From positions 1 to 49,234 of the forward strand of contig JAADDR010000188.1 in assembly GCA_013153865.1 (NCBI GenBank): a stretch of DNA of 49,234 nt. Direction: 5' to 3'. Within the stretch, counting starts at the first letter, position 1; the number at the start of each line of letters is the position of its first letter. The notes under the pieces are model-generated. The model did not search any database. It was given only the letters and a program-made list of their open reading frames with translations, and was not told the origin of the DNA. This DNA is from Chlorobiota bacterium (lineage in GTDB: Bacteria > Bacteroidota > Bacteroidia > Bacteroidales > JAADGE01). The position numbers and the translations under genes were made by a program. Shown in pieces: positions 31,506 to 35,453 of the stretch.

Positions 31506-32660
31506 ATGTCCGAAAAAAAGAAAATATTAATTTTTATAGACTGGTTTTTACCCGGATACAAAGCCGGCGGACCGGTAAGAAGTATTGCAAACATTACGGA
31601 ACATCTGTCGGAAGATTTTATTTTTAAGATTATAACAACCGATACTGATTATTCGGAAAATATTCCGTATTCAAGCGTAAAAAGTAACGAATGGAATACT
31701 TTATCCGAGAATGTATCCGTATATTATTTATCAAAAGACAAATTAAAAATTAAAACAATAAAAAAATTAATAAAAGATACGTCTTTTGATATTGCATACA
31801 TTAACGGTATTTACTCATTTTATTTCTCGATATTACCTCTGCTCATTTTAAGAAAATCCGAAAAAAAAATAATTGTTGCCTCGCGAGGAATGCTTTCCGA
31901 ACAGGCCTTTTCGTCAAAAAATATAAAAAAAACGATATTTCTTAAATTTGCCGGTATATTTAATCTGTATAAAAACGTAATATTCCAAGCCACGGAAAAA
32001 ACAGAAGCAGAAAATATAAAAGAAACGATAAAACAATACAAAAAAATAATTACCGTTTCTAATCTGCCTCAAAAAACCGGTTATTTAAAAAATAAACGGC
32101 GAAATAAAAAACAGGGTTCATTAAAACTCGTAAGCATTGCCAGAATATCTCCGGAAAAAAATACCCTGTACGCAATACAAATATTACGGCAACTGAAATA
32201 TGACGGTAAAATCGAGTTTGATTTATACGGTTCCGTTTATAACGAAAATTATTGGCACAAATGCAAAGAAATCATTAAAACACTTCCCGAAAATATTTCC
32301 GTTAATTACAAAAACAGTATAGAGAATTATAAAGTACACGAAACATTTTCGAAATATCATTTTTCTTTTATGCCGAGTAAAGGAGAGAATTTCGGACACT
32401 CTATTTTAGAAAGCTTTTCTGCCGGTTGCCCCGTAATTACAAGCAAAAACACTCCTTGGCAAAACCTCGAAGAAAAAGGAATCGGTTGGGACATAAACCT
32501 GAGCAACAAAGAAGAGTTTGTGAAAATTATTGAAAAATGTGCCGATATGTCCGAAAAAGAATACAATTCCATGTCTGAAAATACTTTTAATTTCGCAAAA
32601 AAATTTTCCGAAAAATCACAAGCAATAACAGATACAAAAAAAATGTTTGACGATGCATAA
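31506..32660 (+). CDS. Glycosyltransferase family 4 (GT-B)
   Basis: PGYKAGGPVRS, IARISPEKN, PSKGENFGHSILESFSAGCPVITS (EX7E). ATG at 31506. Confidence 0.92.
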   Translation: MSEKKKILIFIDWFLPGYKAGGPVRSIANITEHLSEDFIFKIITTDTDYSENIPYSSVKSNEWNTLSENVSVYYLSKDKLKIKTIKKLIKDTSFDIAYINGIYSFYFSILPLLILRKSEKKIIVASRGMLSEQAFSSKNIKKTIFLKFAGIFNLYKNVIFQATEKTEAENIKETIKQYKKIITVSNLPQKTGYLKNKRRNKKQGSLKLVSIARISPEKNTLYAIQILRQLKYDGKIEFDLYGSVYNENYWHKCKEIIKTLPENISVNYKNSIENYKVHETFSKYHFSFMPSKGENFGHSILESFSAGCPVITSKNTPWQNLEEKGIGWDINLSNKEEFVKIIEKCADMSEKEYNSMSENTFNFAKKFSEKSQAITDTKKMFDDA

Positions 32661-33207
32661 AACCGACCTCTCAAAATTCGACAACTCTTGGTATAACCCG
32701 AAAGGAAATATCGTTAAAAGAACTTTATGGTATTTCGTAAATGTTTTATTTTTTCTTAATCCGTGGAACCCGTTAAGCTCGCTTAAAATTTTTTTATTAA
32801 GACTTTTCGGTGCAAAAATAGGTAAAGGCGTTATCATAAAACCTTCCGTAAACATAAAATATCCCTGGCGTCTTTCCGTAGGAAACAATGTTTGGATAGG
32901 CGAAAAAGTTTGGATAGATAACCTTGCCGATGTAAAAATTGCCGACAATGTAAGCATATCACAAGGAGCAATGCTGCTTTGCGGAAATCATAACTACAAA
33001 AAAACATCTTTCGATTTAATTATCGGAGAAATAAAACTTGAAGAAGGAGTTTGGATAGGAGCAAAAAGTATTGTCGCACCCGGAGTTACCTGTAAATCAC
33101 ACTCCGTTCTCGCCGTTAATTCCGTTGCCGTTAAAGATTTGGAAGAATATACAATTTATCAAGGAAATCCCGCCGTAAAAGTAAGAAGCAGAATAATTGA
33201 AGAATAA
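32653..33207 (+). CDS. wcaF: WcaF-family polysaccharide O-acetyltransferase (hexapeptide repeat)
   Basis: LLRLFGAKIG, NIKYPWRL, ISQGAMLLCGNHNY, GNPAVKVR. Confidence 0.88.
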   Translation: MHKTDLSKFDNSWYNPKGNIVKRTLWYFVNVLFFLNPWNPLSSLKIFLLRLFGAKIGKGVIIKPSVNIKYPWRLSVGNNVWIGEKVWIDNLADVKIADNVSISQGAMLLCGNHNYKKTSFDLIIGEIKLEEGVWIGAKSIVAPGVTCKSHSVLAVNSVAVKDLEEYTIYQGNPAVKVRSRIIEE

Positions 33208-33268
33208 CAAAAAAACATCCTTCTTATAACACCTTTATTTTAAACAAAATACGGATACACTTTCATTT

Positions 33269-33380
33269 TAACCCGATTATTCTGAAAGTCGAGTTTCGAA
33301 ATTATCGGGTTAAATCGAAACTTCACTTTAATAATAACCCGATAATTATACAAGAATAATTTGCAAATAACCCGATAATT
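33269..33380. repeat. Four copies of TAACCCGAT(A/T)ATT on a 33-bp lattice, second copy inverted
   Basis: Direct copies at 33269-33281 (1 mismatch), 33335-33347 and 33368-33380. Reverse-complement copy AATTATCGGGTTA at 33300-33312, flanked by 13/15 inverted repeats at 33285-33299 and 33315-33329. Confidence 0.9.
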
Positions 33381-33391
33381 CAGTAAATTTG
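33360..33391 (+). promoter_or_regulatory. Bacteroidota sigmaA promoter for the AAA/DUF4143 gene, with repeat copy 4 in its spacer
   Basis: TTTG at 33360-33363, 20-bp spacer, TAAATTTG at 33384-33391; ATG at 33407. Confidence 0.75.
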
Positions 33392-33406
33392 TAAAAATTT
33401 AAACCT

Positions 33407-34672
33407 ATGGATTCCGATTATATCATAAAACGGAAAATATACGACAAAATAAAAAAACACCTCGACAAAAAAGAAATTACCATAATAAGCGGTATTCGTC
33501 AATGCGGAAAATCGACAATATTGCACAAACTCAGAACAAACCTCATAAAAGAAGGAGAAAAAACAATATTCTTAAATTTCGACTTCGACAAAGACAAAGA
33601 ATTTCTGAAAACACAAGAATCACTTGTAAACAAACTGAAATTTGAATTCGGAAGCAACAAAGGATATGTTTTCATAGACGAAATTCAAAGACGAGAAAAT
33701 GCCGGATTATATCTGAAAGGAATTTACGATCTGAGATTACCTTACAAATTCATCGTATCGGGTTCGGGAAGCGTAGAATTAAAAGAAAAAATTCAAGAAT
33801 CTCTACTCGGAAGAAAACGAGTTTTCGAAATGACACCGGTAAACTTTTCCGAATTTGTAAACTACAAAACAAATTATAAATATTCGGAAAAAATAAACGA
33901 ATACTTCGAATTCGAAAAAGAAAAAACAGAACAATTCCTGAAAGAATATCTGAATTACGGAGGTTTTCCGAGAATTGTAACCGAACGGGAAACAGATGAA
34001 AAAATCGAACTTATAAACGAAATTTACAACAGTTACATAGAAAAAGATTTAATTAATCTTTTAAACATAGGCAAACCCGAACTTTTTAAAGATATCTTCA
34101 AGATGCTGTCATACCTGTCGGGTAAGTTATTAAACCTCACAAACATCTCAAACGATACCGACACATCCGTGCAAACTCTGAAAAAATACCTGTATTTTGC
34201 CGAAAAAACATACTCGCTTACCAAAATAAGACCGTATTTTAACAACATAAGCAAAGAAATTCGCAAAGCACCCGTAATTTATTTTACGGATACCGGAATG
34301 ATGAACTACATAAGCGGTAAATACGGAAATTTAAGCACACCTGCCGACTTCGGTTTTGTTTTTCAAAACTTTATTTTCAATATTCTGAAAGATACAATAC
34401 CTAAAAACCACGAAATAAAATACTGGCGAACAACAGACAAAGCGGAAGTCGATTTTATCATCGACAAAACATCCGGAGTAACGCCGATTGAAGTAAAATA
34501 CAAAAAACTGAAAAAAACAAACATAAGTCGTTCGCTCAGAAGTTTTATAAACAAATACGAACCTCAAAATGCATATATCGTAAACCTGTCGTTAAAATCA
34601 AAAATAAAAATAAACAAAACAACGATTCACTTCATACCTTACACAAAATTATTTTCGATAAAATCACTATAA
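33407..34672 (+). CDS. AAA_14 ATPase + winged HTH + DUF4143 (PD-(D/E)xK-like) protein
   Basis: Walker A GIRQCGKST, Walker B FIDEIQ, VSGS, LLGR, YGGFP, HTH-like NLTNISNDTDTSVQTLKKYL, YFTDTG, YWRT..KAEVDFI...PIEVK. Confidence 0.92.
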   Translation: MDSDYIIKRKIYDKIKKHLDKKEITIISGIRQCGKSTILHKLRTNLIKEGEKTIFLNFDFDKDKEFLKTQESLVNKLKFEFGSNKGYVFIDEIQRRENAGLYLKGIYDLRLPYKFIVSGSGSVELKEKIQESLLGRKRVFEMTPVNFSEFVNYKTNYKYSEKINEYFEFEKEKTEQFLKEYLNYGGFPRIVTERETDEKIELINEIYNSYIEKDLINLLNIGKPELFKDIFKMLSYLSGKLLNLTNISNDTDTSVQTLKKYLYFAEKTYSLTKIRPYFNNISKEIRKAPVIYFTDTGMMNYISGKYGNLSTPADFGFVFQNFIFNILKDTIPKNHEIKYWRTTDKAEVDFIIDKTSGVTPIEVKYKKLKKTNISRSLRSFINKYEPQNAYIVNLSLKSKIKINKTTIHFIPYTKLFSIKSL

Positions 34673-35419
34673 ATGAAATTCTCAATAATAACGGCAACAT
34701 ACAACAACCGAAACACAATCGCCGATGCAATAAATTCCGTTGCTTCGCAAACATACAAAAACATCGAACACATCATAATCGACGGAGCATCAACGGACGG
34801 CACACTGTCGATAATAAAAAACACGCCCGGAAAAATCTCGAAAATTATAAGCGAACCCGACAAAGGCATATACGATGCTCTGAATAAAGGCATAAAAAAC
34901 GCAACCGGAGATATTATCGTTTTTCTGCATGCCGACGACATATTTGCCGAGACCAAAATTATCGAAAAAGCCGCAAAACTTTTCGAAAAAAAGCAAACGG
35001 ACAGCATATACGGCGATTTACGTTACGTTGCAAAAGAAAATACCGACAAAACCCTAAGATATTGGAAATCCGGAGAATACTCATTCTCGAAACTGAAAAA
35101 AGGATGGATGCCGCCGCACCCGACATTTTTTATCAAAAAAGAAATATACGACAAATACGGGATTTTCGATACCGAATTTAAAATTGCCGCCGATTACGAC
35201 ATAATACTCCGATTTCTCGGAAAACATAAAATCTCAACGGCATATCTGCCGGAAGTTATAACAAAAATGCGCATAGGAGGAGAAAGCAATAAAAATATCA
35301 AAAATATAATATTAAAAATGAAAGAAGACATAAAAGCTCTGAAAAAAAACAATATAGGAGGTTTTCACACACTCGTAATGAAAAACATCACAAAAATACC
35401 GCAATTGTTTCGGAAGTAA
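34673..35419 (+). CDS. Glycosyltransferase family 2 (WcaE-like)
   Basis: FSIITATYN, IIDGASTDGT, SEPDKGIYDALNKG, FLHADD, GWMPPHP, IAADYD, MRIGG. Confidence 0.92.
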   Translation: MKFSIITATYNNRNTIADAINSVASQTYKNIEHIIIDGASTDGTLSIIKNTPGKISKIISEPDKGIYDALNKGIKNATGDIIVFLHADDIFAETKIIEKAAKLFEKKQTDSIYGDLRYVAKENTDKTLRYWKSGEYSFSKLKKGWMPPHPTFFIKKEIYDKYGIFDTEFKIAADYDIILRFLGKHKISTAYLPEVITKMRIGGESNKNIKNIILKMKEDIKALKKNNIGGFHTLVMKNITKIPQLFRK

Positions 35420-35434
35420 ATTTTCTTAACTTTG
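35405..35434 (+). promoter_or_regulatory. Promoter for dnaG
   Basis: TTG at 35405-35407, 19-bp spacer, TAACTTTG at 35427-35434. Confidence 0.6.
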
Positions 35435-35453
35435 CTTTCCGCAAATAAAAAAA

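Follow-up and report, generated by a model that had tools for sequence, protein, structure and literature searches.

Several DNA-binding proteins act at repeated, oriented sites beside their own genes, such as Orc1/Cdc6 at origin recognition boxes and DnaA at the DnaA boxes of its own promoter. Plasmid iterons are likewise short, directly repeated and phased protein-binding sites that also autoregulate the gene of their binder, and in the C proteins and the BrxR/CapW-type winged helix-turn-helix (wHTH) controllers an operator overlapping the system's own promoter keeps a toxic effector low until it is needed. Here we analysed a 49,234-nt stretch of a Chlorobiota bacterium genome (Bacteroidota; contig JAADDR010000188.1, positions 1 to 49,234; hereafter the window), in which the gene of an AAA_14 ATPase fused to a wHTH and a DUF4143 domain, the latter a putative nuclease, is preceded by a phased array of four copies of the 13-mer TAACCCGATWATT. 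We consider it probable, from the comparison of sequences, that these repeats are the cognate autoregulatory operators of a horizontally mobile cassette, bound by the protein that it encodes and exerting negative autoregulation. The locus differs from iteron/Rep systems in lacking both a Rep-type protein and a replicon context, in its period of 32-33 nt instead of ~22, and in the often inverted sites. In contrast to the C proteins and BrxR/CapW, regulator, ATPase and nuclease would form one polypeptide, and the half-sites lie three helical turns apart rather than adjacent.

The gene family itself is already known and catalogued. In the available part of PMC12988326, PDC-S01 (AAA_14 + DUF4143; COG1373) appears as a candidate defence system with validation pending, its candidacy being based on association with defence genes, and it shares with our locus the layout of a single gene in which an ATPase is fused to a PD-(D/E)XK domain. 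The accessible part of PMC3424549 includes DUF4143/COG1373 among the PD-(D/E)XK families, as one without a known function. According to the portion available of 10.1101/2024.09.26.614923, one PDC-S01 representative was challenged in E. coli B with T7, T5 and T4 and did not belong to the four systems that protected, and the accessible text of PMC13356809 gives PDC-S01 as the most frequent single locus in rumen genomes. Published counts place PDC-S01 proteins with the most common candidate defence genes in prokaryotes. A table in PMC4406477 records, for an AAA_14/DUF4143 gene of Thermus thermophilus, a 6.6-fold rise when plasmid DNA is present, which fits a repressed, inducible gene in this one distant member. 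The phased upstream repeats with their operator are what the present locus adds to PDC-S01: the available parts of these five sources and of 10.64898/2026.10.19.760177 make no mention of upstream repeats, those on PDC-S01 none of an operator or promoter either, and term searches of the literature, with supplements and the paper defining the PDC candidates outside their scope, did not find this cis-architecture. The architecture in question consists of phased private repeats as putative operators, a portable near-consensus promoter whose start is probably leaderless, and one-gene cassettes at stop codons.

A pattern search allowing at most one mismatch found TAACCCGATWATT four times in the window (Table 1), compared with a chance expectation of 0.42, and four or more copies occurred in 0 of 100 dinucleotide shuffles. 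Consistently with an earlier note on this DNA, made from the letters alone, three plus-strand copies start at 33269, 33335 and 33368 (offsets of 66 and 33 nt) and a minus-strand copy occupies the gap, the successive copies lying 31, 35 and 33 nt apart from centre to centre. A repeat search extended the unit to ~16 nt (TTTAACCCGATAATTT), with 16-mer starts at 33267, 33299, 33333 and 33366. The possibility raised in that note, that the 13-mer might be scattered genome-wide, was not borne out, since four of its five exact occurrences in the 2.5-Mb assembly are at this locus and a weighted 16-mer scan of the same genome returned the locus as the sole cluster of strong sites. Copy 4 was also correctly placed by the note between TTTG and TAAATTTG, which we take, from the consensus for this phylum, to be putative Bacteroidota -33 and -7 promoter elements, so that this site overlaps the gene's own putative promoter. 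Its placement relative to TAnnTTTG recurs in four orthologs (L037, L066, L115 and L116), and TAnnTTTG-like boxes stand at the matching position in Bacteroidota orthologs. At the left cassette edge, ACACCTTTATTTTAA (33229-33243) and ACACTTTCATTTTAA (33257-33271) lie 28 nt apart, and the former may be a degenerate fifth unit out of phase. The region 33208-33406 holds just one small open reading frame (ORF), of 37 aa with a TTG start, on the minus strand and spanning the repeats.

We explored the family with a scan of one genome per species, which gave 80 loci with proteins 40-74% identical; relatives provided three more and, with L124 (gene at a contig edge) and L139 (mis-anchored) left out, 81 ortholog loci were retained. 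Hosts include Bacteroidota, Desulfobacterota, Nitrospirota, Gammaproteobacteria, Patescibacteria/CPR, Omnitrophota, Clostridia, Anaerolineae, Caldisericota and others, with orthologs of ~45-55% identity (among L066-L145) in a patchy spread that points to frequent horizontal transfer. Of 72,556 plasmids, 544 carry distant homologs, which also occur in 21 of 50,697 phage records.

Phased upstream repeats, which the earlier note had proposed to look for in homologs, were found in orthologs of many phyla, at 40-81% protein identity, arranged in two ways. At 54 of the 81 loci a sigma70-type promoter, TTGAY-N16-18-TANNNT, lies near the start codon, and an inverted motif copy stands at ~-24, in the spacer and into the -10 (38 of 54), with a direct copy at ~-56, just upstream of the -35 (26 of 54); both sites are present in 19 loci, exactly 32 nt apart in 17 of them. 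This promoter is near consensus (TTGACT-N16/17-TAAAAT in the last 40 nt before the start codon, L068-L145), and the distance from the -10 end to the start codon is 4-9 nt in 51 of the 54 loci (6 nt in 28), which suggests a leaderless mRNA in hosts of many phyla. A leaderless near-consensus promoter would suit a gene moving between phyla. The second arrangement was found in 23 of the 28 other loci (mostly Bacteroidota, the window locus included), as chains of two to seven sites in steps of 31-35 nt. In L066 a period of exactly 33 nt is kept over seven copies, the motif being conserved and the spacers diverged; L067 has six, and L115, L116, L123, L137, L111, L071 and L037 have three each; runs of N break the arrays in L037, L112, L115 and L116, where copy numbers are lower bounds. 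Two of the five single-site loci have little upstream sequence, and another, L126, contains an inverted repeat of variant sequence that escaped the consensus scan. A strict core search detected the motif in 22 of 80 loci only; the weighted scan and promoter-anchored reading revealed variant cores in many of the others. The 33-nt units of Bacteroidota resemble a degenerate promoter plus motif, with TTTx at the start of the unit and an AAGT-like box after the motif.

The copies belonging to one locus have changed together. When the proximal site was compared with the best 16-mer 31-35 nt upstream over nine core positions in 70 loci, mean core identity was 6.2 of 9 within loci versus 5.6 between loci, and 0 of 5000 permutations reached 6.2. 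Both copies had switched together to CCCCAC in L140, CGTGAT in L131, CCCGGT in L130 and L092, CCCAAT in L127, TACGAT in L086, AACTTAGTTAT in L126 and CCGAG in many loci.

More distant members of the family have repeats of their own. Among 64 Bacteroidota paralogs with 27-35% identity (26 loci and 38 usable of 40 fetched upstream regions, one being dropped for want of a start codon and one as too short upstream), the best 14-nt direct repeat within 200 nt upstream matched at 12 or more of 14 positions in 52; its period was 31-33 nt in 42 of the 64, including 33 at 32 nt, and 64-66 nt in a further four, and all 35 paralogs reaching at least 13/14 have a period of 31-33 or 64-66 nt. As a control, 588 non-coding upstream regions of the window's own genome were scored in the same way: 206 reached 12/14, 13 of them at 31-33 nt, and these 13 include the present locus and the paralog on C158. 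The repeat sequences differ from one Bacteroidota paralog to another, and the own-genome paralogs C97 and C158 lack the present motif, C158 having a weak 33-nt repeat of its own (12/14). The same genome also contains two DUF4143 fragments, G000:C189:5310-5507 (-), with the N-terminal ATPase part in another frame, and G000:C91:4207-4371 (-), cut by the contig end. In a subgroup of paralogs (L058, L059, L197, L200, L201, L204, L208, L209, L211, L215 and L224) the units of the 32-nt repeat are palindromic, with a common xxGATTGTAATCxx-like core and outer arms that vary by 2-3 bases between loci, which looks like specificity swapping on one scaffold.

In the reverse direction, the exact phased pair (motif, 19-21 nt, motif) was found in 12 metagenome stretches and in none of the viral contigs searched. 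An ortholog (44-81% identity) starts within ~140 nt in nine of the 12, the motif orientation being opposite in one; a further stretch has a truncated gene remnant, and L230 has only a distant paralog, 1.06 kb away. The last, L236:5105-5190, is an orphan pair, 33 nt apart, before an unrelated secreted-protein gene and without an ATPase gene, and is either a scar or a co-opted site. Covariation, paralogs and reverse search agree that the repeat sites are lineage-specific and vary along with the lineage of the protein.

The locus lies on the chromosome, flanked by sugar-polymer genes and dnaG, and comparison within the genus revealed an insertion. We searched the GT2 glycosyltransferase protein encoded immediately downstream in 14 other same-genus genomes and found it in 12. 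The empty sites between acetyltransferase and GT2 genes that the earlier note suggested seeking do exist: the hexapeptide-transferase stop overlaps the GT2 ATG in G003, G008, G001, G004 and G002. Since the flanking genes overlap directly in these five genomes, 33208-34672 is an inserted cassette that ends at a stop codon, its TAA (34670-34672) abutting the GT2 ATG as the note had read. An ortholog lies directly upstream of GT2 in G012 (protein 80% identical; on the left it is flanked there by another gene, which in G014 adjoins GT2) and in G005 (gene split over two contig ends). It is plausible that the cassette promoter also drives GT2, as the note had proposed; the idea is based on a terminator/promoter scan, ill-suited to Bacteroidota in its sigma70 part, which found no terminator-like site. 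A second insertion point lies 750 bp downstream, in the spacer between GT2 and dnaG (window 35420-35453; L147, L149, L150, L154 and L156). There, G013, G006 and G010 have another AAA_14/DUF4143 paralog (26-28% identity), whose own palindromic operator directly follows the GT2 stop, and G014 and G009 keep the operator/promoter sequence without a gene, a remnant that looks like the scar of a lost cassette.

The 421-aa protein matches AAA_14 (PF13173, E 1.5e-30) and DUF4143 (PF13635, E 7.1e-35), and its translation contains the Walker A (GIRQCGKST), Walker B (VFIDE) and EVDFI...PIEVK segments that the earlier note had recognised. No variation was seen among 73 orthologs at G29, G34, K35, D91, E92, E347, D349 and E362, with K364 conserved in at least 90%, so that E347, D349, E362 and K364 provide the acidic residues and the lysine of a putative PD-(D/E)XK nuclease. 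Seven PADLOC PDC-S01 profiles matched, the best being PDLC04789 (E 7.8e-80, residues 7-393 of 421) and the other six ranging from E 7e-62 to 6e-24; the gene has the single-gene AAA_14 + DUF4143 layout of PDC-S01, and the adjoining genes are unrelated sugar-polymer genes that vary between genomes. An AlphaFold2 model built from 73 orthologs (predicted local distance difference test score, pLDDT, 91.8; predicted template modelling score, pTM, 0.91) is confident and shows, besides the AAA+ core, a helical region, a winged helix and a C-terminal alpha/beta domain. The predicted wHTH spans residues ~223-295, with helices at 224-237, 244-250 and 255-267 and strands at 271-274 and 290-293. A homodimer prediction, run without controls, scored 0.00 and counts neither for nor against.

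Foldseek ranked highest two archaeal AAA+/wHTH ATPases, SSO1545 (2fna) and PAB2304 (2qen), which share the ATPase, helical and winged-helix layout over ~376 columns (template modelling score, TM, 0.47-0.58) but have 14-16% sequence identity and lack the PD-(D/E)XK domain, their entry titles giving no function. Next came DNA-bound Orc1/Cdc6 (2v1u and 2qby, on origin DNA; E ~1e-6), STAND proteins, RuvB and clamp loaders. Orc1/Cdc6 has the same order of AAA+ and winged helix; however, the global TM-score is 0.28-0.33, and the present locus has a C-terminal nuclease domain, sites on a promoter and no sign of an origin. The Pfam search of the protein gave no match to Cdc6/Orc families, only AAA_14, DUF4143 and a sub-threshold nSTAND3; a sequence search of the PDB found no relative (best E 0.32), and NCBIfam gave no match above threshold.

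Table 1 Coordinates of the cassette, its repeats, promoter elements and protein motifs, and the flanking genes in the window
Feature	Position	Strand	Basis or remark
Inserted single-gene cassette, 1465 bp (repeat/promoter region and ORF, ending at the ORF stop)	33208..34672	+	Empty sites in relatives
Repeat copy 1, TTTAACCCGATTATTC	33267..33282	+	13-mer 33269-33281; sequence, pattern search, weighted scan
Repeat copy 2, inverted, TTTAACCCGATAATTT on the minus strand	33299..33314	-	13-mer 33300-33312
Repeat copy 3	33333..33348	+	13-mer 33335-33347
Repeat copy 4, within the promoter spacer	33366..33381	+	13-mer 33368-33380
TTTG, putative -33 promoter element	33360..33363	+	Read from sequence
TAAATTTG, putative -7 promoter element, 15 nt before the ATG	33384..33391	+	Read from sequence
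Imperfect 30+30-nt palindrome with copies 1 and 2 as core	33261..33320	+	80% complementary; hairpin if transcribed by read-through
AAA_14/wHTH/DUF4143 ATPase-nuclease gene, 421 aa, PADLOC PDC-S01	33407..34672	+	Profile matches, AlphaFold2 model
Walker A, residues 29-36, GIRQCGKS	33491..33514	+	G29, R31, Q32, G34 and K35 invariant in 73 sequences
Walker B, residues 88-92, VFIDE	33668..33682	+	V88, F89, I90, D91 and E92 invariant
Predicted wHTH, residues ~223-295	34073..34291	+	AlphaFold2; limits read from secondary structure
PD-(D/E)XK motif, E347, D349 ... E362-V-K364	34445..34498	+	Conservation in 73 orthologs
Left flank, hexapeptide-repeat transferase (acetyltransferase) gene	32647..33207	+	Hexapep, E 1.6e-8
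Right flank, GT2 glycosyltransferase gene	34673..35419	+	ATG abuts the cassette stop codon

What the sequences show directly is an insertion, a motif whose phase and promoter position are conserved across phyla, copies that change together within a locus, lineage-specific repeats in the paralogs and a tight association of motif and gene. Because motif, phase and promoter position survive 40-50% protein identity, the passage between phyla and two promoter types, and because the copies vary jointly and each paralog has its own version, the motif must be recognised by something encoded in cis; the ATPase-wHTH-nuclease is the sole product of the cassette, and we therefore take the repeats as its operator. 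In support, the wHTH is confidently modelled, and the nearest folds are AAA+/wHTH ATPases followed by Orc1/Cdc6. We propose that 33208-34672 is a horizontally acquired, self-contained single-gene cassette for a protein that joins an AAA_14 ATPase, a winged helix and a PD-(D/E)XK nuclease, with the four phased TTTAACCCGATWATT copies as its own operator, bound by the encoded protein. The spacing of 32-33 nt corresponds to about three helical turns and therefore suggests contacts between neighbouring protomers, so that the protein would probably bind as a cooperative oligomer with protomers ~32-33 bp apart, ATP perhaps controlling oligomerisation. As the promoter spacer is occupied by the proximal copy, a bound protein would silence its own gene, and this negative autoregulation would keep a potentially dangerous nuclease low and buffered.

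Several results weigh against this operator model. Site orientation is mixed (an inverted pair in sigma70-type loci, direct arrays in Bacteroidota, + - + + here), which a single rigid binding mode does not predict, and the orphan arrays (L236 and the G014/G009 scar) could mean that the sites are useful without the protein. Part of the array period may reflect tandem duplication of a 33-nt promoter-operator unit, not protein geometry. The difference in period between paralogs and control regions has Fisher p-values of ~1e-38 (all regions) and 3e-27 (high-scoring regions), which overstate the case because kin are not independent. None of 28 paralogs from five non-Bacteroidota genomes has a direct repeat of 12/14 or better, many having a near-consensus promoter abutting the ATG and short palindromes in the spacer; the 32-33-nt phase is therefore not constant family-wide, and the earlier proposal of sites about three helical turns apart applies to the ortholog group and the Bacteroidota paralogs but fails in these 28. 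Likewise, the proposed covariation of the repeats with the wHTH sequence was supported in part: the repeats change with the protein lineage and jointly within a locus, but two tests did not localise the signal to the wHTH. Mutual information between four variable motif positions and the protein in 65 orthologs had its top columns scattered over all domains, and an entropy contrast between 73 orthologs and 25 Bacteroidota paralogs did not single out the wHTH as conserved in the former and variable in the latter, the largest contrast being in the AAA core, probably just an effect of the low starting entropy there. We found no binding, footprint or expression data for any family member.

The protein might also bind the repeats with regulation as a secondary effect, the array being an assembly or 'self' platform in cis, like an origin or a centromere, on which the AAA+ nuclease would polymerise; such a platform might hold the nuclease inactive, mark the element or aid the spread or persistence of the cassette (homing or addiction). 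Up to seven copies, reaching 250 nt upstream, exceed what promoter occlusion needs, the phase is exact though the spacers diverge, and the closest DNA-bound folds are the Orc1/Cdc6 origin binders. The nuclease residues are invariant, and the cassette is mobile, with two insertion sites within 2 kb in one genus, orthologs of ~50% identity in many phyla and distant homologs on the plasmids counted above. We nonetheless judge this explanation rather unlikely: the repeats lie at one cassette end only, the other end being a stop codon, no recombinase or second end was seen, and direct evidence for such an activity is lacking, while most orthologs have just two sites that bracket or overlap the promoter in the classic layout of an operator. 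It is very unlikely, in our view, that the repeats are bound by another factor (a host regulator or RNA polymerase) or are tandem promoter duplications tied to the gene by co-inheritance only. The likeness of the Bacteroidota 33-nt units to degenerate promoter-plus-motif units and the orphan arrays without the gene would agree with it, but one motif accompanies two promoter types across Bacteroidota, Desulfobacterota, Nitrospirota, Gammaproteobacteria and Patescibacteria, and a shared host factor is not expected over such distant phyla. Moreover, paralogs of one genome have different repeats, copies covary within loci, and neutral co-inheritance would be unable to keep a 13-16-mer at 40-50% protein identity.

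Finally, the element might act as RNA, either as a repeat-spacer transcript, the alternative offered by the earlier note, or through a hairpin of copies 1 and 2 that would terminate or attenuate read-through from the upstream polysaccharide genes. This hairpin is stable (-21.5 kcal/mol, z -4.5; 0 of 200 shuffles as stable), and the position of the cassette within an operon makes read-through transcripts likely. However, the sites of the 54 sigma70-type orthologs bracket the -35 and lie in the spacer, and both are therefore upstream of the predicted transcription start and of the transcript; many arrays are all-direct and unable to pair, so that the hairpin is not conserved there, and the hairpin in the window has no U tract, in a region where no terminator-like site was found. 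Rfam gave three microRNA-hairpin matches, all far below gathering scores, and the 'spacers' are near-identical between units in L115, L116 and L123. An RNA role is thus extremely unlikely, and we rejected it on the position of the sites in or upstream of the promoter and on the many arrays that cannot pair. A CRISPR-like repeat-spacer array was rejected on the same promoter location, the near-identical spacers of several arrays and the lack of an Rfam match at threshold.

The role of the cassette may be defence or selfish self-maintenance, and the suggestion that it might be a defence module agrees with the listing of the family as PADLOC candidate PDC-S01. A bolder version of the autoregulatory operator reading, which we regard as possible but doubtful, is that PDC-S01 proteins are sequence-specific DNA-binding AAA+ nucleases with a private recognition code beside each gene, which polymerise in a three-turn register on phased sites that are more than an operator, being the cis half of a two-part element, by which their dose is set and they are held inactive, and are released on loss of the cassette, on titration by foreign DNA or by a trigger, in defence or addiction. 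If this were true, the thousands of lineage-specific pairs of repeat and protein would amount to a natural collection of orthogonal DNA-binding modules whose code could be read. In heterologous tests of the family, tight autorepression may keep a gene off as long as it has its native promoter, and over-expression without the operator may change its behaviour. The private phased sites that members appear to have on their own promoters, in orthologs of many phyla and among the 64 Bacteroidota paralogs, offer a first tangible way into the molecular workings of the family: a predicted sequence-specific DNA binding with known target sequences, a predicted regulatory logic, and a fixed 32-33-bp geometry that any structural model must explain.

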